From contig QPGO01000038.1 in NCBI GenBank assembly GCA_008632985.1, forward strand, positions 87,939 through 151,938: a DNA stretch of 64,000 bases, read 5' to 3'. The notes below the pieces were generated by a model. That model did not search any database. It was not told the DNA's origin and saw only the letters and a list, made by a program, of their open reading frames with translations. The stretch is from Psammoneis japonica. Taxonomy: Eukaryota. A program made the position numbers and the translations under genes. This document shows positions 1-64,000 of this stretch, piece by piece (position 1 is the stretch's first letter; each line of letters opens with the position of its first letter).

Positions 1-42
1 CCCCGATTCTCCCACAACAGCCAGCAATTCTGCATCATCCCA

Positions 43-460
43 TCGTTGTTCTCGCTGGAGTGACCGACACGCAGCTCCCGCCATTTCCAGGCATGCTGCT
101 GCTGCTTCCCCAGGGTCCACTGGCCTGTCTGCCGCCGGTTCTCCCGTGACAGCGACTGATCCTGCAGGACACAATGGTCGTTCCCGCTTGAGTGACCGAC
201 ACGTGGCTCCCGCCATTTCCAGGCATGCTGCTGCTGCTTCCCTGGCGGCCGCTGACTCATCTGCCGCCGGCTCTCCCGTGATGGTGACTGATCCCACAGG
301 ACACAATGGTCGTTCCCGCTTGAGTGACCGACGTGCAGCTCCCGCCATTTCCAGGCATGCTGCTGCTGCTTCCCTTGTGTCCGCTGGCTCATCTGCCGCC
401 GGTTCTCCCGTGACAGCGACTGATCCCACAGGACACAATGGTCGTTCTCGCTGGAGTGGC
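43..460 (+). repeat. 132-bp (44-codon) tandem repeat, ~3.2 copies
   Basis: GAGTGACCGAC at 58, 190 and 322 and GAGTGG at 454 give a 132-bp period. Translates as the repeated peptide TDPxGHNGRSRLSDRxxAPAISRHAAAAS. Confidence 0.9.
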
Positions 461-490
461 TCCCCGTTGCTAGATGGCCCATCTGCAAAT

Positions 491-798
491 AAGACTGGCC
501 ACATAAAAAGGTGCTGACGGAGCTCGAAATAGCTCGAATGGTCGATTTTCAGGTGTGGACACCGATCGAAAGCTCTCGTCGAGCGCTTTTTATCCATGCA
601 TTGTGAGTTTATCAATTCCCATTTCCCAATGAATGGAGGCCGGTAAAACATTTCAATGGTCAAAATAATTTGTTATAAAACACATGTGTACATTGAGAAT
701 GGTCATTTATCATGCGATTGCATTCTGCGCGCTTTTTCTCAATGAACATTTTGGGAGCTCGAGAGCGCCCGTTAGCACCTTTTTATGTGGCCAGTCTT
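491..798. mobile_element. MITE with 30-bp TIRs and a 4-bp AAAT target-site duplication (AWWT, Sola-like)
   Basis: AAGACTGGCCACATAAAAAGGTGCTGACGG (491-520) is the reverse complement of 769-798 with one mismatch. AAAT lies at 487-490 and 799-802. Removing 312 bp rejoins ORF 146..517 to ORF 785..2200 in frame (PSAN-GARR). Confidence 0.88.
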
Positions 799-2101
799 AA
801 ATGGTGCTCGTCGTTTCCATCGGTCTCCGAAGCCCAATGTCCGAAAACAACATGCCACCATTTCTGGTTCATCATCCAGTGGCTCCTCCGCCACTTCTTG
901 TTCGGTTCCATCGACCACATCCACTCCTGTCAGGTCTGCCAGGTCCGTCCCGAGCCATCGTAATTGCAGCTCACGCACTTTAAGGAACACTCTGCTGTCA
1001 AGGCATGACCTCCCACCCCCTCCTGCTGGAAACAAGCGATCTTCCTCTGGTGCCTTAACGTCAAGTCACCATTCGAAGTGCAGTTGTCGAATTGATGTGT
1101 CTGCTTCTGGGTGCGAGTCTACAACCTCAATTTCCTCGTTGTCCACCAGATGCAATGGCAGCCCACCTGGCCAACGCCAGAATTCTGCGTCCGCCTCTTC
1201 CTCGCCCATTTTAGAAGGATGGTTTGGCCCTCCTGTGCATGCCGGGTTGTTCTTTTTTTGTGATGACGAGTCTTGCACATTTGATCCTCTGGAGGTGGGT
1301 GGCGACTCCAACGATTCTACCGACTCAGAAGAATCCGAACCTCCTGTGTTGCAGGCCCAACGACAGGGATGTCAATCTCTGTTGGAATCTCATGATGCAA
1401 ATTTCAGAAGGTGCTGCCAAGTGATTGATTGCTCTTCCTCCGAAAAGCCCAACGTTGCCTGCAAAGACATGTCCGTTGCTTGTTGTGACGAAGACACAGC
1501 GCATTTTCGGAAAGCACTGTTTTCCACACAGATGCGAAACAAGGACCCACCCTCCACTGCACTCAAAGCGAAGCATCCGGGTGAGCACTTTGTTCTTCCA
1601 GATCCTGACATGGCTTTGCTGTTTCCATGTGGGCACACTGGACTGGCTGCAATGACCAAGCCTCGCTGCAATCCCCACGGTGAGGTTAGAATTGAGGACC
1701 GAACTCGCTGCCTGTTGGAGGCCAATCGTCCAGGTGTCGATGTAAAAACTTTGGAACCGGGTCGACTGCATTCCGCAGTGTGTGGCGATCAACGAGTGGC
1801 GGTGGTTGTGGATGATGATGAACGGTGTTCTCGTATCCGCTTGCTGGGTCTAAAGCAAGTTTGGCGCGATTTTTGCCTTCGAGAGAAACCCGGTTGTCCA
1901 GGTCGACATCAGGTGCCCGTCACCGGAGAACGAGGAAATCGTGAAGTGACGGTTGGATCCAGTGGCGACCACAATGGAGTGAGAGGAGAAAATGGCACAT
2001 CGGTGCCCCAGCTCAACAAAGGCACCAAGTGCCAGCACCTCCAATGGCCAAGCTGGGTCAGTTGTTTGAGGACGCATGGGAAAAAGCTTTCCCCGGGATT
2101 C

Positions 2102-3147
2102 CAGTCATCGACAAATCATTGCACCCCAAGCGCCTTGACGATTTTGCCCGACAAATTCGTGAAGACGCACTCACCGAGTGCATGTCGATTGTTCCACTGA
2201 CATTCAAATTGGACGGCAGCATGACACTGACCGAGCACCTGCTCCATCACCTGGGCGGCTTTGGTTGCAAGAAATGGAGTCCGATCATGAGTGTGTGGAC
2301 AACCACACATTGTGAATTGTTGCACACAAATGTGTTGTTTCCGGCAACTGTGTTTTGGAAGGGATCCAACGCGAACTGCTGCCATCGAATGTGGGAGATG
2401 GAGAAGGCTGTCAAGCTGATCGTCGATCGCTGCAACAACGTGCCATTGCCGTGTCGCACAATCACACCCGCCACACATTGTCCACCTGCCGAAGGATGCC
2501 GCCGAGACCACATCCACTTGAATCCCCTGGTGGGCTTGTCCCCGGTGTTTGACATTGTTGACAAGATGTCAACGTGTTTGCATGACGAGCAGTGTCAACG
2601 AATGTCAGAACACCTGCTTGCCAACAGTCATCGACGAATCATTGCACCCCAAGCGCCTTGACGATTTTGCCCGACAAATTCATGAAGACGCACTCACCGA
2701 GTGCATGTCGATTGTTCCACTGACATTCAAATTGGACGGCAGCATGACACTGACCGAGCACCTGCTCCATCACCTGGACGGCTTTGGTTGCAAGAAATGG
2801 AGTCCGATCATGAGTGTGTGGACAACCACACATTGCGAAGTGTTGCACACAAATGTGTTGTTTCCGGCAACTGTGTTTTGGAAGGGATCCAACGCAAACT
2901 GCTGCCATCAAATGTGGGAGATGGAGAAGGCTGTCAAGCTGATCGTCGATCGCTGCAACAACGTGCCATTGCCATGTCGCACAATCACACCCGCCACACA
3001 TTGTCCACCTGCCGAAGGATGCCGCCGAGACCGCATCCACTTGAATCCCCTGGTGGGCTTGTCCCCGGTGTTTGACATTGTTGACAAGATGTCAACGTGT
3101 TTGCATGACGAGCAGTGTCAACGAATGTCAGAACACCTGCTTGCCGA
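2102..3147 (+). repeat. 523-bp tandem duplication (2102-2624 / 2625-3147)
   Basis: CAGTCATCGAC at 2102 and 2625; CACCTGCTTGCC at 2611 and 3134. About 10 differences between the copies. Confidence 0.95.
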
Positions 3148-4806
3148 CATTTGTGTTGCTGCAACTGCTCAAACAAACAACATGGAACGTTTTCATCGAT
3201 TTGGAACTCAGCATTTGGATGAATGGAGGAAAGTTAAATCCAATCCGTTGCCAAATGGATTTTCCAATGGATTTCGATGGTGGCTTTGAATGCACTGTCC
3301 CAGTGCAGACGGCAACGCCCAGCTTGACGGATCTGCCGGGGTTGGCGGCATTCGACACCAAAGCACCAACAGTCAACCAGTTTTGGATGCAACGCATGAC
3401 AGATCCATTTGCAGCTTTCATCAAATCATCTCTTTGCATCAAGGCAACGAGACAACATCTGCGAAGCATCCAAAGTTGGTGAACGAAGTCTCTAATTCGT
3501 TTCAATCCAGCGACAAGTTGAAAACCCAAAAGTTGAACCTCTGCTGTGTTGGCAACCTCAAGCAGCATGATCTGGGAATTGTCGATTCGCATTTGCCCGG
3601 AAGCAAACAATCCATAAAGAAATTCCGACAGTTGGGCACAAACCTTGAACGAAAGGATCAGCTGTGTCAGGTGGTTGCGGCCGCTGCGGCGGAACTGGAC
3701 ATTGCAACGCTGGAAGGCGAGGAGTGCGTGTGTTTGTTCACAAAGGACAGTCCCGACACTGTCGCGGGTGGCAGTGACAGTTGCATTGCAAATTGCAATC
3801 TGTTTGAGTGCAAGCACAGTCCAGGGAAAGCCCCAATTGTCGTCCAGCACCCTGCAGACTTGTCTCCTGCGGAAAAGCATGTGAGGAAAAATTTTGCCCA
3901 ACCGAGTGCGTCCGACAATGACTGTCGTCCGGAATGGGTTGATGCCTTCAATGCATCCACCAAATCCTGTTCTTTTGTTGCAAGGTTGTCCACGAGGAAG
4001 AACTTGGAGTTTATGGTTAAAGCAAAGACGTCTGACAAGGAACGAAACAAGTTGGAACAATCAAAGCTGCACTCTGACAAAATCATTTTGGATCCCATTG
4101 GTGTGGTTCAGACTTTGCCAAACAAAAACCACTGTCTTCCATTGCCCAATGTCATGAGGTTCCCAGCAGTTGATTGCCTGGGAATGAAGAGCGACAAGGA
4201 ATTGCGCTCGGCAATGAACGTCCAGCAAACCAGAGATGGTGGTCACCTCTGTGCGATGGATTGCAACGTCATTCGGTGAAGCGCAGTTGTTGGGGGAATG
4301 GATGCTCTTCATCATCATCGTTTGCCTCCTGCAGGTTTGAAAAGCAAATGCCGTGCATCGTGCCAAAGCAAAGCGGAGGCGTCAACGGCTTTTTTGTTGC
4401 ACTTGCTCTTCAACACGAACTTCGGCCATGGGCGTTCTTGGTTGTGGAAGCATCTCCGGCGAACAAGGGAATTTGTGCTCATGTTGCTGCTCACGAACCG
4501 GAAGGAAAACATCTCCAGCATGAAAGCAGCAGTGTTGGTGCATCGAGAATCAGTTGCCGAGAAAGAGCCAACGGCGCACGTGCAGCATTTGTTGGAGGAA
4601 AAAGGATCCATGCTGCCTCCTCTTGTTGTGACAAAAGATGTTCATGGATTTGTGGGGAACTGTTTGAACTGATCTCAATGTCGGGTCGCCGGCATCAATG
4701 GTTTGATTGTGAAATGCATTTGTCGCCAGTGCTTGCGTTTGCATCACTGCCACTTTCTCCGGCAACAAAAACAATCATGTTGACATTCCACCGGTGTGCC
4801 AACCCT

Positions 4807-7790
4807 TCAAGCTCTTTCCTGCTGACGGTGACACGCACAAAGACACCCTGGAACTCTGCATTGACAAACAACACAAAGGCAACAACTTTCCCCGAGGTGG
4901 GCTTTGTTGGACCCAAATGCATTGTGCACTGGCAACGGCGGTGGAGCGGTCCCGGGGAACGCTCCAGAATGATCTAACGGGATGCCTTGCAGAGCAGTTG
5001 GTTGAAACGGCATGGCCGACATTTGAAACAAAGCAGAAGGAGCAGATGAAACAATGGGCCATCCCGTGGGGCCAATGATGGGTGGTCCAACTGCTGGAGT
5101 TGTTTGGCCGGCATGGCCATTCTTCGATGGTGCAGCCTTGCATCGCTTCTTGGATGCTTCTTCTTTGCGAGCTTCAGTGTCAATCTTCATTTGGTCGATT
5201 CTCTCTTGGCGGGCGCATTTTCTGGTGGGAAGCTTGGTTGACCTTGATTGGATGATGTCTGCATGTTGCAGGATGGCGGCATGTGGGCACTTCATTGTTT
5301 TGCAGAACTCTTCGCAGTCTCCGATGAAGAGTTTCGCAACATCGGCCGACTCTGTCACTGTGACTTTGCACAAACCAGTGGTCAGTTTGTGCAGCGACTT
5401 GTGATCCAAAGCAGATTCTCCATGGGGGAACCCTTTCAACGCATTGTGGCAGTCCATGATTCGAGTTTTGTCAATCGTGTCCCCAACGCAGTCTTGAGTG
5501 TTGACGAGATGCCCACCTTCGCACGTTGCAATGTCGCGTTTTGTGTCTGGTCGGCCGATGTCCACCAACACATTGTTGGTCAGCGCTTTGTCTTCGTCCA
5601 ACATCCCATGCCTCCGTGAAACAGTGGACCGCTCTAGTGTGTGGGTGTGGACCATGGACGGCAGGGATGCATTCAGCGCATGGGAGAGGGTCACGCCAAG
5701 GGGAATCAAGCCGTTGATGGATTGCGAACCCTTCATTTCGAGATTCATCCTGTGAAACATCATGTGTGAGCATGGACCTGAATGATCAAAACTGTCCTGG
5801 GCAACAACGAACACTCACCTCTCGTGAGAGTTGTTCTGTGGAACCAAACAGGGCTCCCAGAAAGACGTGCAGCGCCAGTTTGCGAAGTCATCATCGTTGA
5901 TGCACTGTTCTGCAAACACATCCGCCAATTTGGTTTCGCCCGCCTTCCTCCATGACTCGAGCACCATGCCAGACATGGCATGGAACAACTCTACATTTTT
6001 GCACCGGTGGAGCATCCTCACGTCATGGATGGCAACTCTGGACAGGAAAGTCCTGTCCTTCATGCACTTCTGGTGTTGTCCGTTTCCTTGCCTCATGAAA
6101 TCTGTGCAGAACTTTCGGAGAATGTGAGGATGGCACATGCCTCTGGGATTGTCAGGGTGCAACAGCTTAAAAGCATTTGAGAAGGCTTTCGAGTGATCCG
6201 AGCAAAGTCCGCCTGCAAACTCCAAGTCGGTCATCCCGAACAAGTCCGACGCCGCCTTTTGCAAAGCACAGAACATCAACATGGCACCTTCTTCGTGCTC
6301 TCCGGTGGTCAAGCAGCAGCAAATTGGCTTGAGCATGCTGGAGCAGCAATGCTTTCCAGTTTTCTCTCATTTCGAAAAGTCGCTCACGCCGAATGCGATG
6401 AGAACAAAGTCATTGCAGACGACTCCATGAGTTCCATCTGTTGTGCCAACCACACAGTGCTCCAGGTTGCGACAATCACAGATGTTTCACAACAGACCGA
6501 GGGAGGAAAAACAACCGTGTTGTCCCTCGCTCCCAGGAAGGGACTCTTCGGACCTTTTCTTTTTCAGAACCTGGCTTCCAACTTGCCTTGTAGTTTGGTC
6601 AACCGTTGCTTGACTTTGCTGGGCAAGTCATCCGGCTGGAGCAAGCAGAACATGCACGTGTGTGGCACCCCATTTTTGCTCTGACGCTTGCCTCTCACAC
6701 CCCTCGCGTGCAGCCATTTGGCCTTTTCTTTCATGTGGACTTCCGAAGAAACGGGTTCTGCATCGAAACCCTCTGGAATCCGCAAACCCCATTTCCGACA
6801 GTGCGAAACCAGGTCTTGTGTGTACGAAATTTTGGTGTTGCATGCTTTTCCGTCTTGAAGAGAGTTTTCGGACGCAGGGTGTGCCGTTGTTGCCACCTCT
6901 CTTCGTCTCTGTGTGATGCAGTGGCAAATCTTGTTAGAAACCTTGTCACTGAGATCCTGCGTTTCGAACAACTCGGATGCAGACAGATCTTCCGAATTTG
7001 AAAAGTGGTCCACAGTTTTTCTCTGCATGTCCTTCGGCAGTGCGTTTGGGTTGCTTTCCATCATGAGCTGCACATGCAGTTTCACCACAGGAGGAAGACC
7101 CCTCGAGCCTTTTGCGAGAATGTGCTCCCGCCAAGTTCGGGGATTGTGACCATCATGGCCACATGTCACTTCCAACTTGCAGGGGCCAGTCGATGGTGCC
7201 GCGACAATGTTTGCTTTGAAGCTGCAACCCGGTTTTTTGCAGCTAAATTTGCTGACCACAGGAACAGAAGGATCTTTCTTCTTCTTCAAATTGTTGTCAT
7301 TGCGGTCGGCTTTAGCGTCTGGGCCTAGAAATTGTCGGGCGGCTGCAAAGGAGGGGAACAAATCTCCAGGGTGCGAATCAAGAGCAGGGCTAGAATCATC
7401 GGCTTCAGCCGAACGAGATGCCGTGTTGGTTGAAGAATTGGGCGCGCCGCCCTTTTTGACTTGCTCCACTTGAACAGCATTTGGAGCATGGGATGGCTCT
7501 TTTCCCGGCCGGATGCGTTTGGCTCGCTGGGTCACAAAATTGTCACAAACCGAGGCAACGAGTTGCTCGGCTTTGGGAGAGGGCATGAGCTCTGCAGCAT
7601 CTGTGACAAAGTCGACTCTCTCCATGAAAGCCTTGGTTTGTGGAGAGAGAAAGTCTCTGGGCTCCGTGGCAGCCTTGCGTGCCACTGCATTGAGGCAGGC
7701 ATCCCGGCCACGACCGACAGCCATCCCGGTTGCCACCTTCTCGATCCTTGTGCCCGGAGATGGCAAGGGCGGCTTCCCGCCATCAGGCAT
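4807..7790 (-). pseudogene. Mutator-like (MULE) DDE transposase with SWIM-type Zn finger, inactivated
   Basis: Motifs TTDGTHG (first D), LCSDHSKAFSNAF (second D), GMCHPHILRK (CxxH), PQNNSHER (E) and GDCEEFCKTMKCPH (SWIM-like). Three in-frame TGA stops (~6564, ~6487, ~6367) are consistent with CGA->TGA. Probable intron at ~5751-5818. Confidence 0.85.
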
Positions 7791-8969
7791 GAGGGACCAA
7801 AAGGAGCCGAGTGCAAACACAAACAAGAGACCATGCAACATGGTTGGCAATGAAGAGTTGTGGGAAGGATGCTCAAAAGGTGATGCCGAGGCCGATGCGG
7901 ACAGGGAATCGGGGCCACGTCGGAGGTGAGTTTCCCGCCAAAACCAAAACTTCCCGCCAAAAAACCAAATCCCACAGAAACCGTCGTTGCAGCACATTTT
8001 CAACAGTTCAAACAATTGCTTTGTAGAGTCACTGTGTTTTGCATTGCACGGGAAATTTTGAATTGAGTCCGTTCGGGAAGATTGGATTTCTCCGTCATCC
8101 CAAATGAGCACAGGAAATGAGCGATTGAATCATCTGAGTGGACTGCGATTTGGCGAGTGGCCATCAAACAGAAATGCCAATGCTGTGGTCATGTAAAACT
8201 GCCAATTGTCGGACGGGCGTCCATCTCGTTCAAAAACAAGAGCCAGCAAACTTGGACCCTCACTCATTTCTCGCACTTTCGAGCGAGTTGAACGCCAAGC
8301 CAAAGCTGCAGCACCATGACAACATTCAACAAGAGTGGAGCCAACAGCAAAAGGTGAGAAGGGAGTGGGGAAGAATCTGTTCATTGTGTGATTTGCAAAC
8401 AAAACGCTCACTCTGTCTTGCAACCATTTGCGTCGAACAGACCCGCAGCCGTGTCGAAATGGAGGATTGTCAAGATCTCGAAAGTGCTGAAGCAACCCAG
8501 GCAAAGACCAAGAGCAACCATGGCATTGAGATGTTTGTCAAGGGACTGTGCAGGACGGAAGGCAGTCGCAATGAAGAACCAGAAAGCTCTGGAGGTCTGA
8601 AGGCTGCATCGGCAGCGATTGGCTCAAGGTTTGATTTTGGGTCGCCGGCGAAGACATGGGTGCATGCAATGCAGAACGGGCATTTGTGTGTGATGCATTG
8701 ACAGTTTGTGCTGGGCGAGGAGGAGGCTGGTGTGCTTGTGATTTCACCGGCTGCGGTTGTTGTTGTCATGGTGAGTGCATCATTTTTGGTGGTTTCTGCG
8801 CGCAAAACAAACATGACTCATCTTACATTCATGCCTGGTTTCTTCTTGTCCAAATTTTCAAACATTTGTGCAATGACCAAAATGACCCATTTTGTCTTAA
8901 TTTGTCAATTGTTGTGACGGTTCGCAGTTGCACAAATGACCATTTTGCAGTTGCACATGACAAGCGAAC

Positions 8970-9161
8970 ATTGTTCGAAGTGTTCGAATTTTTGTCGAAA
9001 ACACATTGCCCTCCAAAGATTTTGATTTAAGTCGCCAATTGTTCGAACTTTTCATGTTGCCCTTTTGGTCACTTCGAACTCATTCGAAAAAAGTTCGAAC
9101 TCATTCGAACAAGTTCGAAGTGTTCGAACAAGTTGAACACAAGCTTTTTCGCACCGACCCC
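8970..9161. repeat. Subterminal cluster of palindromic TTCGAA motifs
   Basis: Repeated GTTCGAA/ATTCGAA units, including duplicated TTCGAACTCATTCGAA and GTTCGAAGTGTTCGAA. Confidence 0.7.
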
Positions 9162-9653
9162 AGCAGCATTCTACATGCATCACATGCCAGAATTTTTAAT
9201 TGTTCATTTGGTCATTCATGTCATTGCGAATTGACAACCACTGATTTTTGGCACGTGACACCACCACGATGACACGTTCCGTCGAACGAGTTCGGGCCCA
9301 CCCGGAACAGTCGCCAAGCCATTTGGGTGCAGCCATGTCAATGAGGTGCTTGCGGATCACACATGTCTCATTGGATTGGCAATTCTTCGTGGTTGACAAA
9401 CAAATGACGGCAAAGGATTCACGTGTTGTTTTGTCGTGCTTTGGCATAGAAAACCTGCGCACCGCAGGCCTTGCCGGCATGGCAGAAGAGAGCACGGCAA
9501 AACAACAACGTGAGATGTCACACCGAATTGTGCATGTGTGTGCTGCCAGCAGAACATCATTTGGCTTGGGTGCGGATGTCATCGTGACATCATCATTCGT
9601 CTCCCTGCCTTGCTTTTGTTTGTGAATAAAACAATCCAAGACGCACTCAGGTC

Positions 9654-10499
9654 ATGCACCTAGAGGAGCTAAAACAACCGGACGAATTGTCTTTCACAGA
9701 AATTGACAACAGGATCCTTGCAATCCGCCGGCATCTAGAACATTTCCCACCCAACGCAGGTGAGGATGGAGAGGCTCTGGAAGACCAACCGGAATTCACG
9801 GATGAGCAACATAAACATGCATTGCTTCGTATGGTCAACAATGAGTGGCGCGATCAGCCACAAGCTGGAGGCCAAGATGCCACGACGCTGTCTCTCAACA
9901 GTCTGCGAGAGAGGCTTGAGCAGCTAGAACTGCAAGACAAGCGTAAAAACAACTCGGCAACCAACCGAGATAATTTTCAAGGCGATCAGCCAAAGAAACT
10001 TTGTGAGTGGTGTAAGGACAAGAAACCGCACATAAAACTCACACACAACACCGTTGATTGCAAGTTCTTAAAACGAGCTCTCAAAGAGGCTAAAAAGCAA
10101 AACAACAACGACAATGATCAAAATGATCGCAACAATCGTCACGAGCATAAGCGCAACAACAACAAGCGTGACAACGGATGCCACGAATCGTCATGTGCGA
10201 TGAAGAGAGCAAAAAGAGACGACAGTCGTAGCCGCAGTCGCAGCCGACACAACTCTCGCAGCTCCAGTCGCAGTCCTCAATGCGACAGTGGCGACAGCTG
10301 CAGTGACTGGTTTTTTGATGTCGACACAGTCGAGTCAAGCGAAACCACGAGCAGACCGGGAAATCATAGATTTCAACGGCACTCTTGGGAAACGCATTGT
10401 CAGTGCCCAAAGCAGGCAAACTCGGCTCTCGGTGCAACCGATCCGAGGCGAGAACACGTCGTGATCAGGGAGTCACAGGCTCCTCAGACATGTTCGTGA
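9654..10499 (+). pseudogene. Retroelement gag-like fragment with a Cys/His knuckle
   Basis: Coiled segment followed by LCEWCKDKKPHIKLTHNTVDC and an N/R/S-rich tail, resembling an LTR-retrotransposon gag C-terminus. No pol or LTR pair was confirmed. Confidence 0.45.
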
Positions 10500-22712: not shown

Positions 22713-22740
22713 TTCCAGCGCCACCCACAGTGCCATGCAC

Positions 22741-43179: not shown

Positions 43180-43429
43180 ACACCAAACCGAGGTAGCTCA
43201 GAACGAATTGCCTTTGAGCTTCGATGTTGCGCAAACCTACCTTAGTCTCTATTTTTGGATATTGCATCTTCACCTTCACATTAATTGCAGCAGAGATAGT
43301 ACATAGACTAGCTAGATAATTCATAATTCATTCATTTTAGCTTTTTTTCAAATCAATGCGCGAGGCTAGAGGGTTAGGGTTAGCAGGCGAAGACGACGAG
43401 TTTTGAAAATTTGCCTTGACGTCACGAGT

Positions 43430-50738: not shown

Positions 50739-51185
50739 GATGGCTCCACTTCCTTGTCTCGGTTTTCTTCTTATAACCGAATGAGATACTTTGTACCAAA
50801 CAGACTCTTTGCAACAAATAGTCTAAAATGGTATCTTTGGCTTGCAATGCGACAGCGCAGAAAAAATCGGGAATACGAAAATCAATCTTGCCAAAAATGC
50901 CGATCGCATATCTTTGATTCCTTCGATTGAAACGACCAGATTTTGTTTTTTCGTCCAGATTTTCTTTTTTTCTTTTTTTTTCGAAAATGCTATTTTTTCG
51001 ATTTTGGACGGACGCCGTTCAGACCACGCGCACACAACATAAACAGCCAGCCAGCCACACAAAAATGCCGCTCGTCTGTCGCAACAACGCACACCGCACA
51101 GCCGCACAACAAACAACAGCGGCAGCAGCAGCAACATCACTAAAACATACAACCTATCTGTAGCAACCACCCACAATTCTATACC

Positions 51186-53064
<1,879 letters not shown>

Positions 53065-53302
53065 GGATAAATAATATTGCATCAGTATAATAGTATAAGG
53101 CAGGCTTATTGATTCGACTATGAACAAGGATTGTAGACTACTTGGTTCTGGAGAATAGAGATAACAGCGAACCCAAATGGTGCGACATTGCGTCCAAAAA
53201 GATAACTACAAAATCGGTCTACAATCTTTCGAATGCAGTGGTGCATGGAACTCCATCGCAAAGTGCTTTCCTTTCGTGCTGCACATTATAAGCAATCGCA
53301 CT

Positions 53303-54895
53303 TTATTTGATACGCAGGACGGTCATCTCGCGCTTGTTCAAGGAGGCAAACTTTGGCTTGTTGGAGTATTTTTCAAACGTTTCAAGTGCAGCATCTCGGA
53401 CCTCTTCATCCTCTAACTTGCTAAAGGCTCTGTATTCGCATGGATAAATTGGACCCAAGAGACGTCGATTGAAATCCATGACAATAGAGCACGCATTGGA
53501 AGTGATGCCCAGTTCGTGTGCGATATCTTCATTCACCTCGGTGAGCAGCGCATACTCATTCAATGGACAACTCGTACGCTTTGCTTTCCATTTCTCAATT
53601 GCATCGTGCATGATGGAGCGATCAGGAAGAGATAGTTGCTTTGAAAAGATTTGGGCAATCCACCTGGATTGAATTTCAGCAGTCGGAAAGGCACCGCCAA
53701 TCATTCGAAACATGCAAACAAAGGCAATGGTTGAATCGGAAGGAACCATTGTGTGTTTGTAAAGCGCAAGAAACTTGTCTTTGCCAGTATCCACCACGAT
53801 ATTTTGGACTATCGAGTCGGGAAGAAAGCTCAAGTTGAGTTCATACCCAGTAGCGCTTATGATGATATCAAATTCTTGGCTAGATCCATCTGTAAAGGTA
53901 ACCATGCGGCCCTTGGAAGATGCAGGCAGAGGTTTCAATGTTAACTCTCCGGATTCAATATATTTGTTGTATGGAAGGCGGCTTATGGATGCAGATGCCT
54001 TTGAAATGTCAGGATCAGGATTGAAGCAGTCATCTACATTGGTTGGTTGCCTCCAGTACTGCTCTACAAGCGATTTGAGTCCTTGGGCATTCATTGACTC
54101 GGGTAGTACTTTCCCTAGCCAGACTGGGAGGCGTGAAAACATTACTTCATCTGCCGCACGGTACTTGCCGTTCTCGGTCAAAGCAAGAGTCTCAATGTTG
54201 TACCGTGGCTTGCGAAACGAGTGAGTCACATGGCTTGCTCTATGAAGAACGGCTTCGGTAGCAATTTCGAGACCTGAAACATTGTTTCCAATCACAAGCA
54301 CTCGTTTCCCCTTGATCTTGTCAATGACCTCTTTAAACTTGGAGCTATGAATTTTGACTGCATCACAGTTTATCAATGGACCTCCTTTCTCATTAAGCGG
54401 ATCGTGTGGATATTGATTCATGCCTTTTGCAACAACCATAAAGTCAAACGCGAGAGTTTCCTCGCCATTCTTGTCCGAGTATACCAACAGGTGCCACTTG
54501 TTATCCTCCTTCTTAGTAGCCTTCTTTACAAAGGTATTAAATTTAATTAGCCGACGAAGACAAAACTTGTTTGCATATGCATCCAAGTACTCCTTCGCTT
54601 CGCTTGCTGATGGATACAGTCCGGCGAAATCTTTTTCTGCGGGCGATGGGATTGCCGCTTCCCATGGGAAGTCGCTAAACTCCATAAGCCGTCGACTCTG
54701 ATTCATGTACAAGGACGGCCACACTGCACTCCCTGGAGACTTTAAGTTCCATTGACCACCAATATCACTGCTTGCTTCAAATAATTGTGCGTCAAGACCG
54801 CATTCGTGCAACGCCTTGGCAGCGGTCAAGCCGCTCGCTCCGGCCCCAATCACTGCAACTCTTGCTCTCGTCGTCGTACTCTCAGTGTCTGCCAT
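53303..54895 (-). CDS. Flavin-containing monooxygenase (FMO)
   Basis: VAVIGAGASGL, FEASSDIGGQW, KIHSSKF (FMO-motif variant), VLVIGNNVSGLEIA and IISATGY. Confidence 0.92.
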   Translation of the reverse strand: MADTESTTTRARVAVIGAGASGLTAAKALHECGLDAQLFEASSDIGGQWNLKSPGSAVWPSLYMNQSRRLMEFSDFPWEAAIPSPAEKDFAGLYPSASEAKEYLDAYANKFCLRRLIKFNTFVKKATKKEDNKWHLLVYSDKNGEETLAFDFMVVAKGMNQYPHDPLNEKGGPLINCDAVKIHSSKFKEVIDKIKGKRVLVIGNNVSGLEIATEAVLHRASHVTHSFRKPRYNIETLALTENGKYRAADEVMFSRLPVWLGKVLPESMNAQGLKSLVEQYWRQPTNVDDCFNPDPDISKASASISRLPYNKYIESGELTLKPLPASSKGRMVTFTDGSSQEFDIIISATGYELNLSFLPDSIVQNIVVDTGKDKFLALYKHTMVPSDSTIAFVCMFRMIGGAFPTAEIQSRWIAQIFSKQLSLPDRSIMHDAIEKWKAKRTSCPLNEYALLTEVNEDIAHELGITSNACSIVMDFNRRLLGPIYPCEYRAFSKLEDEEVRDAALETFEKYSNKPKFASLNKREMTVLRIK

Positions 54896-56488
54896 TTTGT
54901 ATGAGTGGATCTTCCTCAATCTAGAGAAACGCTCTCTTGCTTCCTCGCGTTCAAAAGCGTTCCGAGCAAGAGCGATGATTCTGCCATGGTGCGGAGACGA
55001 TAAGCAGAACGAACAACTTCTTCAACTTCAACTTTCCCGCCAGTTTCCCGCGCATTTTTGTCTGTTTGGGGGGCGTCTTTGGAAGTGAGATCGTCGAAGG
55101 CGGTCTGATCGCCAGTGCGTTTGGGGTTTTTTCCAGTACAATTTGTACGCACAAGAAAACACGTAGGATCTGTCCAGAGGTCCCAAATACCCAATCGCAC
55201 TGATTGACAGACTGTTTTAGTACAAATTCTACGTAACTTTCTTCGACAGTCTCACTTCCGAAGACGTAGCCCATGTTGATCTCTGCGCCAATCTGGGATT
55301 GGAAACTGACCCGGGAATGGCGACTGACTCGTGACTCGAAGTTTGTGAGATCATGGTGGTCTCTACCATCGCATCAGCGAGTGGCTAGAGAGTGGTTGAC
55401 GACAGCTTTTTGTCCACCTTTTATCACGACAAGGCAACACCAAAGCTTGCATTGTAACGACGTTTGTGGGAGCAGTGAATTGAAGCCAGTTGCAAGTCAG
55501 AAGAATTGTGGCACAAGCACGATGAACAAAGATCGGCTCAACAGCGAATGCTCTCCTCTCCCTCAACCATTGTGAACACTTGGACAACATCTTCTGTCAC
55601 CATGATTGTTGCCACCCATGACCTGTAAGAAAATGGGAGTGCATTTCCAGGCGAACCAAGACAATCTGGAGTCTGTTGCTTGTGTGGCATCATCAGAGAA
55701 CCTGACAGGATTTGAACAGGATTTGGGTGCACGCGAAATGTCGCGCGCTGTTTAGTTTGCCGCGCACAGTTTTGTGTGCTTTAGTTCCGCGCGTTCGCGC
55801 GCGAAGCAGTTTGCTTTCGAGCCACAAGGCTCACAAGAACAATGACAGTGGCCCGATTGTGCCGACTTGCACGTCTTTCGGCTCCTGTGACGGTCTCTGA
55901 GCGGAGACTCATCTGCCATTTAGACAGCAGCAAGGAGTTGTTGTTTGAATTCTTGCCATTTGCCTTCAATTTCTGTCAGATTGACAGTCTTGCTCATTGT
56001 CAACCCATTGAGCAACCGCCATCGTCGTCGTTGATTTGCCGACGACGCCACTTCAATTCTGCGTGGACCTCCGCATGCACTCTACATGCGTCGGCAAGTC
56101 TGCGCGTGTTCAACACCAGGCATCGGCAGGAATTTAACGTCGCCGTCAAGTCTCCTTGCCGCTGGACATCTGGATTGATTGTGCTGCCTTTCAGTGCTGA
56201 AGACATGCATTCAACGGTCACATCCAAGTCCACCCTTGATCCTCATCCCTTGATGTGCCCATTCATCAGTTGACGGTCAAGAACCCCACATGTTCAAGGA
56301 TCTTTGTCGCTGAAGACATGTGTGCACACATGTCTTCACGAAAAGGAGAGGATTTCCCAGCTGGAAGTTGCTGCTGGCTGCAAAGCTGTGTGCCCTGACA
56401 GAGATGTGAAACCAGCCACACTCGTTTTTGTTTGCAGATCACCCAGACAACACCCGACCACCTGTGCAATGCTGTGTGCAATGCTCTC

Positions 56489-57104
56489 TGTCAGGATTTG
56501 AGCAGGATGTTTAGTTCACTGCGCACAGTTTTGTGTGCTCTTCAGTTCTGCGCATGTGCACGCAACGCAGTTTGCTTTCGAGCCACAAGGCTCACAAGAA
56601 CAACAACAACAGCAGCCAGATTGCACCGACTTGCATGTCTTTTGGCTCCTGCAACGGTCTCTGAGCAGAGACTCATCTGCCATTTAGACAGCAGCAAGGA
56701 GTCATTGTTTGAATTCTTGCCATTTGCCTTCAATTTCTGTCAGATTGACAGTCTTGCTCATTGTCAACCCATTGAGCAACCGCCATCGTCATCGTTGATT
56801 TACCGACGACGCTGCTTCAATTCTGCGTGGGCCTCTGCACATGTTCTACACACATCGGCAAGTCTGCGCACGTTCAATGCCAGGCATCAGCAGGAATTTA
56901 ACGTCACCGTCAAGTCTCCTTGCCGCTGGATGTCTGGATTGATCATTCCACCTTTGATCGCTGAAGACACACATTCAACGGTCACATCCAAGTCTGTCCT
57001 TGATCCTCATCCCTTGATGTGCCCATTCATCGGTCAATGGTCAAGAACCCTGCATGTTCAAGGATCTTCGTCGCTGAAGACACACACATGTGCATGTCTT
57101 CACG
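56489..57104 (+). repeat. Second copy of LTR + 5' leader (duplicate of 55703-56340)
   Basis: Offset 764 bp, with a ~22-bp deletion near the LTR start. Confidence 0.9.
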
Positions 57105-57695
57105 GCTGAGAACTTGTGCCCACTCTTCGGACTGCGGTTTTGCTGCCACTCTGCAAGCACACCGAGTCCATTGCACCTGATCTACCCCGGACTGCTGGTG
57201 CTCCACAGTTCCACCAGGTCCACGAGGACAACTGTGAGAGCAAGTGGCCATGATTGCAGCCTGCGTTGGGGCGAGGGTGTTTTCCCGCGTTTGTTTGTTC
57301 GTCCACAGTGCCTGACGCCTGCGTCAACTGGCCAGCCTGATCGGGAAATCCAACCGACATAAAACAAGAACGGTTCGGGGGTCTTGTCCACCTCTGGTCA
57401 GCTCACCTGCAGGGGTTTACAACCCGCTGCTCCGCTTGCAAGCAACCCAAAGCGCCGCCAGCTGCGGGTTCGGACGTGCCGGCACAACTCTACGGACCGG
57501 ACAGGAAGTTTGGCACTTGACAACGAACGGGATGGCACAACCCGGCGACTTCTGATTTTAAGATAGTCCAAGATTTCAAGTCAAGTCCAGCTCAAGTCAA
57601 GTCTTTTTCAAGCCAACTTCCAAGTCAAAACTCTGAGTCAAGATCGCGCTCTAGATTGGATCCTGTCTTTTGTTTCTACTGCACCGTCCTCCGTC

Positions 57696-59450
57696 ATGGT
57701 TCTCACGCGACAGCAACAAACCAAAAGCTTCAAATACATTCTAGGCACTGTGCTCAATCAAGACGATGACAGCCCTCTTCGTTCTGCCCTGTCCATCAAC
57801 GGGATTGAATCGTGCGAGGAATTGTTCACGTTCTCACCCACCCAAATTGACGCCCTCACTTGCAGAGACGGCGCCAATGTAGTGCCTTTGCCACGGACCC
57901 ACAGAAACCTCCTAGCAGCTTTGATCAGCTTCTGCTTTCTCAAAGTTTGCAACGGTGATGATGTGACCAATGAACCCCAGTTGCTCACACCCGAGGAATT
58001 TCGCAACTGCCGCCTTGGTCCAGACTGCTTGACCTCTCTAGCCACTGGCGCAGCACCCTCCGCACCTGTGCCGAGTCCCTTGCCATCCAAACCAGGTGAA
58101 CCCAGTGCCATTTTGACACCAGCCTTGCACTGTGCCACCACTCAGGTGTCCCCCAGAAGTGGTGTCAGTCGCGCCCCGCATGTCTTGACCAACCCGCCTG
58201 CAAGCAACCACGGCCCAGTGCAGGATTGCAGCCCTTGCACAGGCCCGCACTTCGAGACCAGTTGGGACACTCCACCCATGGCTTCCAAAGCTGCAGTCTT
58301 TGCACCCCGCAAACCACGTGCTGCCAACCTTCACGTGTCGACCACTGTCACCCTTCACAGTCTTCGTTTGGGAAGTGATGGAGATGACAACTTGCTTCTG
58401 ACATCTCCTGATGGGGAGCCTCCTTTTCCCATCATTGAATCTGTTCACAACAGTTCAACCGGTTCATCAGATGGGGAGTTCAGGACATCCAAGCAGCTTC
58501 GTTGTCTTTGGATGCCTCAAGTCTCGTGCCTCGAGACTGGGCCTCCTGATTGGATGCCTCAAGTCTCGTACCTCGAGACCAGGCCTCCTGATTGGATGCC
58601 TCAAGTCTCACACCTCGAGACTGGGCCTCCTGATTGGATGCCCCAAGTCTCGTACCTCGAGACCAGGTCTCCTGATTGGATTTCCCAAGTCTCGCACCTC
58701 AAGACCAGGCCTCCTGATTGGATGCCTCAAGTCTCGTGCCTCGAGACTGGGCCTCCTGATTGGATGCCCCAAGTGTCGCACATCAAGACTGGGCCTCCTG
58801 ATCGGATGCCACAAGTCTCATGCCTTGAGACCAGGCCTCCCAAATGGACTCTCCACGTCTCGTGCCTCAAGACCGGGCCTCTGGATTGGATCCCCCAAGT
58901 CTCGCACCTCAAGACTTGGCCTCCTGATTGGATCCCCGAAGACTCGTGTCACAAGACTGGCAAGTCCTTTTGGATCCCAGAAGTCTTGCAGCACGGGACT
59001 GGTTGCCCCAATCAGACATCTGCAGCCTTGCACCACAAGATGTCTTGCTCCAACCCGATCCCCGAAGGCTTGCACCTTGAGACTCGTTTCTCCAATTGGA
59101 TCAGTCTCTCAGGAGATGCAGCTGAGCTTGCAATCGGATTGGTGGAACACAAGACCACCGCTTGTGCCTTTGAACTCATGCTTGCTCTGTTCCCCGAGTC
59201 GTGCAAACGCCATGCCGCCTGCAATGTTGCCCCGCCGTTCAACATTGTCAACCAGACCAAGCTTTGCTCCTTCCATTGCAAGTGCGGATGTGGAATCCCA
59301 CAAGATCCCAAGTGTGCCTTGAGCTTTGAAAAGCACAACGGCATCTGCAATTGGGGAGACGCAGCTCATCTCAAGATGACCCACTTGGAGAATGCAACGT
59401 TGCTCTTGGATCTTGATCCTTTCTTGTCTCCTCATGTTTTGGTGCTTTGA
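57696..59450 (+). pseudogene. Copia gag N-terminus fused, via a 14-aa repeat array, to a short pol remnant
   Basis: MVLTRQQQ..FKYILGTVL..DDDSPL..AL...GI resembles a CoDi gag start. C-terminal KCGCGIPQD...HNG..NWGDA..LKM resembles the KYGYEIPRD...NGN.KW.DA..LEM integrase-RT linker. Integrase, RT and RNase H are missing. Confidence 0.75.
58508..58975 (+). repeat. 42-bp tandem array (~11 copies) encoding WMPQVS(Y/C/H)LET(G/R)PPD
   Basis: Unit TTGGATGCCTCAAGTCTCGTACCTCGAGACCAGGCCTCCTGA; exact 42-bp period, no spacers. Confidence 0.95.
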
Positions 59451-59792
59451 CTCCAAAGTTCTTTGGTCAATCCGAAGTCGAATCTGTTTGTGTGACTCCT
59501 CAAGCAAACTGGGGAGTGACAGGATTTGAACAGGATTCAGGTGCGCGCGAAATGTCGCGCGCTGTTTAGTTTGCCGCGCACAGTTTTGTGTGCTTTAGTT
59601 CCGCACGTTCGCACGCGATGTAGTTTGCTTCAGTGCCACAAGGCTCACAAGAATGACAACAGCAGCCCGATTGTACCGACTCACACGTCTTTTGGCTCCT
59701 GGGACGGTCTCTGAGCAGAGACTCATCTGCTGTTTAGACAGCAGCAAGGAGTTGTTGTTTGAATTCTTGCCATTTGCCTTCAATTTCTGTCA

Positions 59793-60420
59793 GAACCAGC
59801 TGGCTGCAGTGATCGAGGCTGCCTTTCTCACAGTGATTTTTCCTCCTTTTGTGGGTAAAAAATCTTTGCTGGAACAGGACATGAGTTGTGTTTGTGGTGA
59901 TGACATGTTGGCTGTCACAGATGAACATTTTCATGCTGTGGGGTCTGACCCCCGCCCCCTCCTGTGTGAGGAAAACATGTTTCATGCTTCGAAACAGCTG
60001 CCAGTTTTCCCCGCGAGAGTTCACACCATCCATCCCCACAAAACTGCAAATTGAAGTCATTTGCATTGTAAAAGTTTTATTTTTTTGTTTGCTGGGGCTT
60101 GCTGGCCTGGCAGAGATGCAAGCTCAGTGGTGGAGATGCTGCTGACAGCACTCAAGTGTCCACACCGGCATTGGGAGTTGAGTGGCATCCCTGCCCTCCC
60201 CTTGCCATCAAAGAGCAACTGGCAAGAAGCTTCTCAACAAGACCCAGGCATCAAACTGTGCATTGATGCATTGAAAGCAGGTGCCACTCTCAACAAGTCG
60301 AAGCTGTTGAGTGCTGAATTCAGCAAAGAATTCCAGCATGGAAGACTCGGGACCAAAGAAGGCATCCTGCGCTGGTGCAAGGGAAGAAGAAAAGCACGTT
60401 GAGACAAATGCAGACAAAAG
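59793..60420 (+). pseudogene. Possible older LTR-retrotransposon pol remnant interrupted by the Copia
   Basis: WQEASQQDPGIKLCIDAL...EGILRW resembles an RNase H-integrase linker. Weak similarity only. Confidence 0.3.
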
Positions 60421-61699
60421 CAGGGCCAAAAAGACATGGGCGAACCATCTTCTCAACCACACATGTCTCGCCTTGTGTGGGACATTCAAGCTGCGAAAAT
60501 GCCTGCTGGAAGATTGCTGCAATCTTCTGGTGGCCAGCAATGGTTTGCCCCACACCTCCCATGCTGTGGAGGGTTCATCAATCACCACTCATGCTGCAGA
60601 GGGTTCATCAATCACCAGTTGTGGCCACATGCTGCATGCTGTTCAAAAACAACATGCACAATCATGCTGCCAGATCTCCTGAACACAAGTCACCAACAGA
60701 GCTTTTTGCAAATGTCCAAGTCAAGCCCCCAAGTTGCATCACCTCCACTCCTTTGCTGGATGCCCTGTGCATGCAACAAAGAACAAGTTGCAGTCAGGCT
60801 CTCATCCTCTAAAGTGGGAAACAAGAGCACACATGGGTGTGTTTGCCTTGGACCTTCACTCAGACACACCAGATCTGGCACTTGTCCTTGACCTCAAAAC
60901 AGAGGGCTTGCTTCTCCACAATGTCATGTCAAAATTGATGACCCATTTGAGGCTGTCAAAGGCTCGTCAATCATTCCTCAGAGTGCCTGGCAAAAAATGG
61001 TGTGTTGCTTCAAGAAAAAAGCATGAGTCAGATTCTCTCCATGAACATTGAGACACAAGGCAACTTCAGCTCCTTCTCAAGATGTGTTGGACTTGCCACC
61101 AACTGATGGCGGGGGCAATGCCAATGATGCAGACTCACCTCTGAGCCACACAGAGTGAACAACAACCTCTGCTTTGCCAAATGAGGGAGGCTTGTAAACA
61201 ACAAGTGCCACTTCTGAAGCTTCTGCAGCTGACTCAGGATCACCAACACCACCAATGGTCACAACACACTCATGCTGCAGATGGTTCATTGATGGTGCAT
61301 TTGCAGCATGGACCAGAAACAGTGGAGAGAAACTCATGCATCCTCCAATGGGTCCCCCCCCACCTCCACTCTCTGCCTCTGCAGTCTTTCTGGATCTAGA
61401 CATGAAAAACTGAGAATTCAAATGTCAACAAACACATCAAAAACCAACAAACCTCTTTTTTTGCACATGCCTTGTCTGAAGAGTGTCATTTGTGGCAACT
61501 TGTGATGACCCCAGATGATGCAAAATTCTGACATGCGTGATTGCACCAGCACTGTGGAAAAGTTTGCAATGTGTCTGTGCACACACAACAACACAACAGC
61601 TCAGCATTCAGGATGGATTTGCAACAGCACACTCGAGACAATGAAACTCAAGATGCGCCCCAATCAAAACCCATCTTGACCAACCAGAAGGACAGCAGG

Positions 61700-62520
61700 T
61701 CTCACCATGCAACGTTTGCAGGGCACACATGTGCACAATGTTTGAAAGATGCACATGAGGTGCGTGTGAGGTGTGCAAGATGTGTGCATGTGGTGAGAAG
61801 CGCGTGTGTGAGGTGTTTGTGAGGTGTTTGCCAGGAGTGTGTAAAATGTGCATCATGTGTTTGCAAGACATGTGTGCAAGCTTTGTGCAAAATGTTTGAC
61901 AGATGGGTGCAAAACATTTGAAATGTTGCATGCAAGAAGCACCACAAATGTGTGTGAGGTGTTTGCAAAATGTGTGTGCAAGGTGATTGCAAGATGTGTG
62001 CAGCGCATGTGTGTGAGGTGATTGTGAGATGTTTGCCAGATGTGCACAAAATGTGTGAGATCTGTTTTTGAGGTGTGCACAAGGTGCGCATGAGATGTGC
62101 TCATGATGTGTGTGAGATGTTTTTGAGATGTGTGTGAAGTGGTGCATGTGAGGGGTTTACAAGATGTGCACAAGATGCACACAAAAAAGTTTGAAAAATG
62201 TGTGCAAGGTGTGCAAGAGGTTTTTGCAAAATGTGCGCAAGGTGTGTGCGTTGGCACTTGTGAGATGTGTGCAATGTGTGTGTGAGGTGTTTGTGAGATG
62301 TTTGTGAGATGACATGTGAAACACTCAAAAGATGTGTGAGATGTGTGCAAGGTGCTTGTGAGACATGTGCAAGGCATTGGCCAGAGGTGTGTGTGCAATG
62401 TTTGAAAGATGTGTGCAGAACATTTGGGAGACATGCGGGAGCTTTCTGCCAGACATGTGCAAAAGTGTTTGTGAGATGTGCATCTGGTGTGCAAGGCACA
62501 TGTGTGAAGTGCTTTTTCAA
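61700..62520. repeat. Degenerate TG/CA-rich low-complexity array (GTGTGCAAGATGTGTG-like units); similar sequence at 63760-64000
   Basis: Imperfect repeats of TGTGTGAGGTG / TGCAAGATGTG / TGCAAAATGTG. Confidence 0.75.
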
Positions 62521-64000
62521 GAGCCCTGTGCAAAAGAGCTGTGACACAAACTCCCGTTGGAGCATTTTGTGGTCACTGTGCTGAGCTTTCATCTGCTTTC
62601 TCATCCAATGCATGCCCAACCACTGATTTGCAGGTGCACTCTCCATTGTAAACTCTGGCACTCATTTCCATCTCAACAACATTTGATGGCATGGCATGTG
62701 TTTTCACAAAATTCTTTTGGCTGTTTTTCATTCTCAGACAACAGCCAAGGACCAAAGAATGCATGTGAAGCTGACAACAACTCCAGCAAGCATGTGGACA
62801 TTGACTGCAAGCAAGGTTTTCTGTGTCTTGCACCCCAGCTTCCTTTGCTCAGTGTCAGAGGTCACTCTGGGACAGGCACAGAGCTGAGATGGAGAGAGAT
62901 GGGTGTTTGACCTCCTCTGTTCTCCAGCTTCAAAAGTGCCCAACTCCCCTGGGAGAGCAGCTTCTCACACAGCAATGGCGCTTGCATGCATCAGCCCTTT
63001 TCTTGGATTTTCTGGCATTCCTTTTGCAGCTGCAAGCATGTGTTGCTTTGACTTCCACTTCTGCCATGCCAGCAAGGGATCGCCCCAAATGTGCTCAATG
63101 CACAAGATTGAGCATGCCTTTCCAAATGCTCTTGTTGCACAACTCGTTCATCAAACAAAAAGTGCGCCACATCACAGGCTTCACACTTGCACACTCCCTG
63201 TGCACCCAAAACAGGATGGGACAATTGTCTGCCAGATCACCTTTGCAGATGAAAATGGCAGGCCCTTTCCATGATCTGACCTTCAAAAAATCAGCAAAGC
63301 CTTTGTTGGGTTGACCCAAGAACTCCTGATGTGCTTGAAACATGCTCTCATCACCGTCAATTTTCTCCAACACAAAAGAAGCTGCCAAGAGCATGGCACA
63401 GCATTTTGTTTGTCTTTCAACACAGGTCCAGCCAAGGAGGGCATGCTGTGTGCCAGCGTGCCATGGTGTGCTGAGCTGGACAAACTGCAGCGCTTCTGGA
63501 GCATGACGGAGGCAGTCTTGGGACCCATGCCAGCAGGGAGTGTGGAGCAATTTTTTGGAATTTTGCACGCAGAAATGTGCGCGCAAAACACACGATGGAT
63601 GACAAAAACAATTGTGTCACAGATCAGCACTGTGAGCTCCCACCTGGGGCTGGAGCGCATCATTTCCACGTGTGATCTTCAAAAAAATTGTTCCAGACTC
63701 ACTGTTTTGCAAAACCCCAGATGTTTTGTTTGCAGCAAAATTGCAAGACCATCAATGCTCCAGGTGTGCAAGATGTGTGCACAAGATGCAAGCAAGATGT
63801 GTGTCAAATGCATGTGAGGTGCTTGGGTGAGATGTGTGCAAAATGTTTGAAAGAAGCGCGTGGGATGTGCGCAAGATGCACACAAACAAAATGTGCATGA
63901 CACACAAGACACACGCAAGGTGTTTGTGAGATGTTTGCAAAACATTTGTGAAGAAGTGTGTGTGAGGTGTTTTGCCAGGTGTGTGCACTGAGCATGTCAA

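Follow-up and report, generated by a model that had tools for sequence, protein, structure and literature searches.

In a 64,000-nucleotide stretch of the genome of the diatom Psammoneis japonica (assembly GCA_008632985.1, contig QPGO01000038.1, positions 87,939 to 151,938 of the forward strand), hereafter called the window, silenced transposon copies are almost free of the dinucleotide TpA, and it is probable that a host mutational process turned nearly all of it to TpG or CpA, with a signature that can be written T[A>G]Y (adenine to guanine after a thymine and before a pyrimidine, Y). The process is distinct from the ordinary CpG-to-TpG/CpA decay that has affected the same blocks, and runs ahead of it. 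Transposon blocks and genic regions, the latter serving as controls, alternate along the window as listed below, where TpA and CpG values are observed/expected ratios.

1..28657, TA-poor transposon block 1; TpA 0.06-0.11 and CpG 0.44-0.77, by sub-element
28700..37150, genic control region A, with alpha/beta hydrolase, GPR180/TMEM145-like, HA-domain and GT2 genes; TpA 0.65, CpG 0.99
37250..42000, TA-poor block 2, element family not identified; 10 TA, TpA 0.03, CpG 0.16
42050..43380, genic control region B; TpA 0.73
43450..47300, TA-poor block 3, element family not identified; 15 TA, TpA 0.06, CpG 0.25
47400..55450, genic control region C, with NKAP/S1 and FMO-like genes; TpA 0.58
55550..59800, plus strand, TA-poor block 4a, with a three-copy repeat starting at 55703, 56462 and 59517
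59800..64000, TA-poor block 4b, with a faint Integrase_H2C2 match at 60318-60809; 9 TA, TpA 0.03, CpG 0.19

Taken together, the blocks (1-28.6, 37.25-42.0, 43.45-47.3 and 55.55-64 kb) contain 212 TA, whereas the genic ratio would predict 1709, and their overall TpA ratio is 0.08. An earlier sequence-only reading of this DNA had described four blocks nearly free of TpA and rich in TpG and CpA among host genes of normal composition, and this description is borne out by a full separation of 1-kb intervals, in which all 43 block intervals have TpA ratios of 0.00-0.33 and all 17 genic intervals 0.50-0.87 (Mann-Whitney p = 2e-9). Its by-eye counts of TA proved exact as well, namely 0 in 2102-3147, 5 in 27001-28380, 2 in 39001-40000 and 14 in the genic 28861-29160, compared to 59.7, 56.3, 62.1 and 21.8 expected from base composition, respectively. 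The change of regime takes place within about 100 bp at 28.6, 37.2, 42.0, 43.4, 47.3 and 55.5 kb. The ratio for TG and CA together rises from 1.17 in genic DNA to 1.64 in the blocks, G+C is 0.51 in the blocks and 0.47 in genes, and apart from TA, TG, CA and CG the dinucleotides are little altered between the two.

CpG is also depleted, with ratios of 0.16-0.77 in the blocks against 0.97-1.04 in genes, but unevenly, reaching 0.16-0.25 in blocks 2, 3 and 4b and only 0.61-0.77 in an exonuclease-family element, a DIRS-like element and the region 1-11 kb. In every element the loss of TpA is further along than that of CpG, and about 85% of TA is gone even from elements in which only about 23% of CpG has been lost, suggesting a process that either is much faster than CpG decay or works in bursts. 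One consequence is visible in the stop codons of block 1, which on both strands together number 110 TAA and 96 TAG against 1086 TGA. Since TAA and TAG are almost gone, long spurious open frames abound in the blocks, with 183 stop-to-stop frames of at least 100 aa and one of 1163 aa, and a gene finder would probably over-call genes in them.

Accurate reads contain the TA-poor sequence, and do so at the depth of a single copy. In X1, a public sequencing run, 96% of the sampled 31-letter words of 37001-47000 are present, and contigs assembled from it without a reference (k=31) differ from the window by 0, 1, 1 and 5 letters over 37131-38626, 38598-39471, 39473-43430 and 43669-48000, respectively. 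The contig depth is 62-68 in TA-poor pieces of 0.9-4.3 kb and 58.9 in a gene piece of 5.1 kb (31817-36936), where the depth of unique DNA in X1 is about 60.

The direction of change can be read from two unrelated element families in block 1, whose copies have homologues with conserved Tyr.

11259..16073, minus strand, degenerate large element in several frames, with relatives that carry a 3'-5' exonuclease domain
22377..28657, minus strand, DIRS-like retroelement copy, with terminal direct repeats at 22377-22563 and 28441-28657 that are 81% identical
23541-25948, minus strand, reverse transcriptase (RT)/RNase H region of the DIRS-like copy, with a frame change near 24960

The frame at 23463-25724 on the minus strand has 109 relatives, identical at up to 61% of positions, which are DIRS-like RT/RNase H proteins. 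Among 367 columns conserved across 58 homologues, the window copy keeps none of the 7 conserved Tyr (5 have become Cys and 2 His), compared to 282 of the 360 other residues (Fisher p = 3e-5). In total 85 columns differ, of which 58 can be assigned to one base change, 18 need at least two and 9 are ambiguous; the 58 single-base changes comprise 12 TpA>TpG, 6 TpA>CpA, 11 CpG>CpA, 5 CpG>TpG, 9 other transitions and 15 transversions, and 18 of the 24 A:T>G:C changes lie within TpA. In the relatives, the median content is 1.96% for Tyr and 0.84% for Cys, and the window frame has 0.1% Tyr, 4.8% Cys and 5.2% His. The exonuclease-family copy, aligned to residues 12-1555 of its 1568-aa homologue P0112, shows the same exchange, with 17 His, 10 Cys, 3 Tyr, 3 Phe and 5 other residues at the 38 Tyr positions of that protein. 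As Tyr is encoded by TAY, Cys by TGY and His by CAY, the direction is TA to TG or CA, the reverse of repeat-induced point mutation (RIP) in fungi.

The TA poverty is not shared by relatives of the DIRS-like element elsewhere. All 79 metagenome loci with related elements have TpA ratios of at least 0.25 (median about 0.63), none of their 1140 1-kb intervals falls under 0.2, and no second TA-poor example was found among them, which makes the TA poverty a property of the copies in this genome and not of the DIRS-like family. Two of these loci, L061 and L073, have TpA ratios of 0.37-0.38, CpG ratios of 0.48-0.49 and TG/CA ratios of 1.5-1.6, which could reflect the same process at an earlier or milder stage in a different organism, or CpG decay alone.

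The loss depends strongly on the bases that flank TA. Relative to genic DNA, the residual TA ratio is 0.00 for ATAT, 0.015 for ATAC/GTAT, 0.037 for GTAC and 0.055-0.14 for mixed contexts, rising to 0.26 for CTAG, 0.27 for CTAA/TTAG and 0.48 for TTAA. Grouped by purine (R) and pyrimidine, survival is 0.019 for RTAY, 0.095 for the mixed contexts RTAR and YTAY, and 0.316 for YTAR. A two-strand additive model, in which each strand mutates independently of the other and the rate depends on the base that follows the adenine on its 3' side, predicts a mixed survival of 0.077 (the geometric mean), close to the 0.095 seen, and implies a 3.5-fold preference for a 3' pyrimidine. The products agree with the same model, by which mixed sites should turn mostly into YTGY or RCAR: YTGY and RCAR exceed the genic baseline by 1730, and RTGR and YCAY by 762, a difference of 968 where by our arithmetic about 1040 is predicted from 1856 lost mixed sites. 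Furthermore, of the polarised Tyr codons, none of the 16 that follow a purine was retained (6 Cys, 7 His), and 5 of the 17 that follow a pyrimidine were (8 Cys, 4 His), a difference in retention with p = 0.044. CpG loss shows no flanking preference like that of TA loss for RTAY far above YTAR. From these contexts the signature reads as T[A>G]Y, or equally as R[T>C]A on the other strand. A model of processive action along a single strand was dropped, as there is no excess of like TG or CA neighbours: adjacent sites are in the same state at a frequency of 0.497, where 0.500 is expected, and over-dispersion equals that of genes.

Repeated sequences within the window show when and how the changes were made. 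The copies that bear on this are the three-copy repeat of block 4a and the following tandem repeats.

3..458, plus strand, 132-bp tandem repeat of about 3.5 units, whose inter-unit differences are of CA/TG and CG/TG type
2102..3149, plus strand, two tandem copies of about 524 bp that are 98% identical and both free of TA
58508..59095, plus strand, 42-bp tandem array in block 4a, encoding the 14-residue repeated peptide MPQVS-Y/C/H-LETGPPDW

Over 11 paralogous pairs in the window, CA in one member faces TG in the other at 48 sites, CG faces CA or TG at 58, and there are 31 transversions, together with 10 sites at which TA stands against CA or TG, as the sequence-only reading had noticed for paired copies. 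Given that CpG is only about one quarter to one half lost, CpG decay would supply few of the CA/TG doubles, and by our arithmetic a TA loss of about 95% per copy roughly predicts the observed ratio of doubles to TA singles. One site in the three copies of block 4a reads GTGC, GCAC and GTAC. In the 42-bp array the units carry GTA, GTG, GCA, ACA or ATG at one column, translated as Tyr, Cys or His, and a second column shows CCGG decaying to CTGG or CCAG. On the other hand, the two copies at 2102-3149 differ at 10 sites, of which 8 are of CpG type and none is a CA/TG double, so that this duplication, free of TA in both halves, took place after the TA loss.

Copies beyond the window give a similar picture. 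Among 28 listed X1 variants that lie within TA-poor blocks or at their edges, with 117 more variants unlisted, other X1 copies have TA at four sites where the window has TG or CA (43703, 44177, 44426 and 46081), and TA accounts for 887 of 1020 depth units at one of the four; the listed variants also include one complex case, nine sites at which other copies have CG, and the reverse once for each type. In the exonuclease family, 4 of 145 library relatives (P0120, P0123, P0132 and P0170) are essentially Tyr-free, with 0-0.3% Tyr and raised Cys and His like the window copy, indicating that protein predictions elsewhere already include TA-stripped copies. The window copy and three of these Tyr-free proteins read CCH, HCC, CHC and CCC at three adjacent conserved Tyr columns. 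Thus the TA loss arose in place after insertion or duplication, independently at each site and on either strand.

Sequences that depart from this pattern are found both within block 1 and among repeats in or near genic DNA.

471..798, normal-TA island within block 1; 15 TA
9627-10148 and 10795-11243, smaller normal-TA islands within block 1
30266-30466, 67-bp tandem repeat of 3 units with normal TA; summed X1 depth about 1715
36900..37199, short high-copy repeat adjoining block 2, with normal TA (21 TA in 300 bp); summed X1 depth 1437-1859

The two short high-copy repeats may be miniature elements that escape TA loss. Within this one window, the affected blocks have diverged paralogues in X1, and the short high-copy repeats are spared.

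A loss that is so complete (98% at RTAY) and so dependent on context points to an enzyme, or to a base modification laid down by one, and not to background mutation. A deaminase that recognises a T on the 5' side and favours a pyrimidine on the 3' side might be recruited to silenced elements, where it would convert adenine in DNA to hypoxanthine by deamination; hypoxanthine would pair with C and so fix an A:T to G:C change. Among chemistries, such adenine deamination in DNA is the one that we tentatively prefer, while holding it to be no better than possible, and a TadA/ADAT-like adenine deaminase is compatible with the T-A-pyrimidine signature. It is conceivable, although still doubtful, that a natural enzyme system writes A:T->G:C at T-A-Y in chromosomal DNA under guidance to transposons, which would be the first case of defence hypermutation by adenine deamination (or by an equivalent thymine-directed reaction), mirroring fungal RIP and paralleling in nature the adenine base editors of the laboratory. 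The changes strip Tyr and many Ile codons, including the conserved Tyr columns of the DIRS-like RT/RNase H, as well as signals that contain TA, and these losses would disable the elements, which suggests a role in defence. The sequence-only reading had proposed a repeat-targeted defence system converting A to G in TpA; its core, TpA to TpG or CpA on both strands of transposon DNA, stands, and the targeting of repeats or homology, the defence function and the identity of the enzyme lie beyond these data.

Several points weigh against a host process of this kind as the general explanation. The genomic basis is a single 64-kb window, with the genome-wide scope and any less-mutated master copies outside its view, and X1 is a single sample from a single study, of unrecorded library type and perhaps the source of the assembly itself, so that it provides no independent confirmation. 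The context baseline is the composition of neighbouring genes and not that of the true ancestors of the elements, the Tyr context test has 33 sites, with a split of Cys and His by context that is not significant (p = 0.43), and one of the two patterns used in the metagenome search required Phe or Tyr, a bias against mutated copies. Neither do the three normal-TA islands within block 1 have an explanation. A change directed at A is indistinguishable from one directed at T of the opposite strand from sequence alone. Finally, as the sequence-only reading had remarked, the responsible gene is not evident, and no deaminase or other candidate gene is present among the window genes.

Among the alternatives, the main one is the decay of a mark, in which a modified T (for example one with an oxidised 5-methyl group) or a modified A at TpA of silenced elements mispairs or is misrepaired, so that TA passes to CA or TG as methylated CG passes to TG or CA, only faster. 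TpA and TpC are the preferred sites of 5-hydroxymethyluracil in dinoflagellates, and 5-formyluracil forms mispairs with G. Such decay would account for changes that are independent from site to site, on both strands and without runs, for their sharp coincidence with CpG-decayed blocks, a sign of methylated DNA, and for the sparing of short high-copy repeats in genic DNA, and the reading R-T-A is as valid as T-A-Y. However, the advance of TA loss over CpG loss would require a very high rate for a passive process, normal-TA islands inside a 28-kb block fit a process acting on chromatin domains poorly, and the literature matches listed for 5-hydroxymethyluracil and diatoms concern, in their excerpts, dinoflagellates; on balance we consider mark decay a possible but rather unlikely cause. 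By contrast, we see hardly any room for the suggestion, raised by the sequence-only reading, that modified bases at TpA were misread as G or C and that the real DNA is TA. The uncertain library type and origin of X1 leave it some ground, but reference-free contigs matching with 0-5 differences at gene depth are not what noisy long reads should give, and a symmetric modification read as G would yield two forms at half depth, one all TG and one all CA, where instead TG and CA alternate randomly at full depth. Moreover, the copies have decayed in other ways too, with frame changes and, at the conserved columns, the 15 transversions and 16 CpG changes.

The same low standing is given to editing of RNA, in which retroelement transcripts would have been edited from A to I at UA by an ADAR- or ADAT-like enzyme, reverse-transcribed and inserted. 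RNA-editing deaminases are known to hypermutate RNA from A to G with a preference for a 5' U, and the DIRS-like family, one of the two that were polarised, is a retroelement. A fungal tRNA deaminase has also been described, in an excerpt, as editing mRNA (PMC11087585). Yet the strands are affected about equally, as the coding strand of the DIRS-like copy has 12 TpA>TpG against 6 TpA>CpA, and Tyr has become Cys at 14 sites and His at 11; the changes post-date duplication and occurred in place, in tandem units and in terminal and internal repeats, and all blocks are depleted whatever their family, with the non-coding parts included. It is similarly improbable that a Pol-eta-like polymerase left its WA>WG signature (W being A or T) during error-prone repair or replication of heterochromatin. 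This candidate of the sequence-only reading draws on TA being one of the two WA motifs, but it is disfavoured by ApA, which is undepleted (observed/expected 1.25 in blocks and 1.12 in genes), and by ApG, which is unenriched (0.95 in both), and a 98% loss at RTAY with a 3.5-fold dependence on the 3' base is not known from low-fidelity polymerases. The least credible explanation, which we regard as practically discounted, is that the elements shun TA by codon usage, origin or selection. Nothing beyond the depletion itself speaks for it. Tyr conserved over 58 homologues has been replaced by Cys or His, and the same loss is seen in a second, unrelated family, the related elements at 79 of 79 metagenome loci are normal in TA, copies that diverged after duplication differ from one another at former TA sites, and non-coding repeats are depleted as well, all of which upholds the view of the sequence-only reading that codon bias of the elements is not the cause.

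The process most similar to the proposed hypermutation in target and outcome is RIP, known from Neurospora and other fungi, which likewise is an in-place, near-saturating point hypermutation confined to mobile-element DNA, on both strands, specific for a dinucleotide and leaving neighbouring genes intact. Fungal RIP changes C to T mainly at CpA, and creates TpA and stop codons. Here the opposite is seen, as TpA is destroyed, G+C is raised and the stops TAA and TAG vanish, and in place of C:G>T:A at CpA the polarised changes comprise 18 TpA>TpG/CpA and 16 CpG>TpG/CpA. The present case is RIP-like in target and outcome and fails the defining chemistry of RIP, and we do not file it as such. Diatoms are stated, in an excerpt of one article, to encode DNMT4, an enzyme of unknown function related to the fungal RIP factor RID (PMC9998398), which is a lead and not evidence. 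Decay of CpG through 5-methylcytosine affects the same blocks, has the same products TG and CA, and proceeds site by site at a self-complementary pyrimidine-purine dinucleotide on either strand. It is clearly present, given the CpG depletion of the blocks relative to genes, and explains only part of the TG and CA excess, whereas deamination of C cannot remove TpA, and the changes from Tyr to Cys or His seen here derive from TA. Transposons of basidiomycetes have been reported to undergo TpCpG hypermutation (Horns et al., 2012; PMC3318451), which, so far as the excerpted text goes, resembles our case as a lineage- and context-specific transposon hypermutation outside the classical RIP species, and differs in being C to T instead of A:T to G:C at TpA.

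Other parallels come from deaminases. TadA, ADAT2-ADAT3 and the TadA-derived base editors convert A to I, read as G, after U or T, and the natural site of bacterial TadA, U-A-C, matches the T-A-pyrimidine signature; the survival values and product excesses given above show just this combination of A>G with a 5' T and a 3' pyrimidine preference. To our knowledge, natural TadA and ADAT act on tRNA, and activity on DNA is known only from engineered or in vitro cases. ADAR and APOBEC also cause transition hypermutation of mobile elements by deamination. Their action is on one strand of RNA or cDNA, in strand-biased runs, unlike the changes in these chromosomal copies, which followed duplication and show neither strand bias nor clustering, and for APOBEC the direction C to T does not fit either. 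A full-text search of open-access papers and bioRxiv, supplements excluded, turned up no account of transposons, in diatoms or elsewhere, that have lost TpA. All transposon-directed point-mutation systems that we know of (RIP, CpG decay, basidiomycete TpCpG hypermutation and APOBEC) are cases of cytosine deamination.

If correct, a near-saturating A:T->G:C process that is restricted to transposons and has a defined trinucleotide signature would add a new mutational chemistry to the genome defence of eukaryotes. The G+C enrichment of dead elements in such genomes, their lack of Tyr codons and their many long spurious open reading frames would then be explained, which matters to transposon annotation and gene prediction in diatoms. 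Such copies escape standard domain models, as the best Pfam match in the blocks has an E value of 6.6e-6 even though one of the copies shares about 60% identity with intact homologues. T[A>G]Y would provide a concrete signature for screening other genomes and seeking the enzyme, which might itself be interesting as a DNA adenine editor of natural origin.

The remaining features of the blocks are faint traces of coding sequence.

5818..6366, minus strand, faint MULE transposase match; Pfam E 0.032, 15.1 bits, under the cut-off
17740..18506, minus strand, short MCM-like fragments (P-loop and OB matches) in TA-poor block 1; E 6.6e-6, 25.8 bits

A Pfam scan of the 183 block frames of at least 100 aa gave five weak matches (E 0.0007-0.0064), all under their cut-offs, and the MCM P-loop match, which is just over its cut-off; a laxer scan of 19 frames added only the MULE match. 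The element labels of the sequence-only reading fared unevenly. Homology searches confirmed the DIRS-like element and the one with an exonuclease domain, the MULE label has the single sub-cut-off match to its name, and of its captured gene pieces only the short MCM match was seen. Copia was not found in the Pfam scans of block frames, where the Integrase_H2C2 match of block 4b is the nearest trace.

As for the genic regions, the named relatives of the NKAP/S1 gene are all from diatoms among the 120 matches listed, the best named ones being from Bacillariaceae, and the best matches of the FMO-like gene are just 36% identical. A contig of a second run, X2, lies on 34150-35949 and 36039-36879 and skips the 89 bases between, like a spliced transcript of the GT2-like region; X2 looks RNA-like from this gap, though it is not recorded as RNA. 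X2 falls mainly on genic parts and leaves most of the TA-poor blocks uncovered, a distribution that says nothing on expression.

Some local repeats were also noted in the blocks. An array with an 8-bp period, reported as 22 overlapping copies, occupies 20917-21316 of block 1, and the largest local asymmetry of TG and CA in the window is found at 21001-22000 (observed/expected 1.97 for TG and 1.22 for CA). Degenerate short repeats with units of about 22 bp, made almost wholly of words rich in TG and CA, lie at 61814-62429 and 63534-64000 and translate as strings rich in Cys, Val, Lys and Met. The segment 63534-63608 also has an inverted match, 71% complementary, at 19979-20053.

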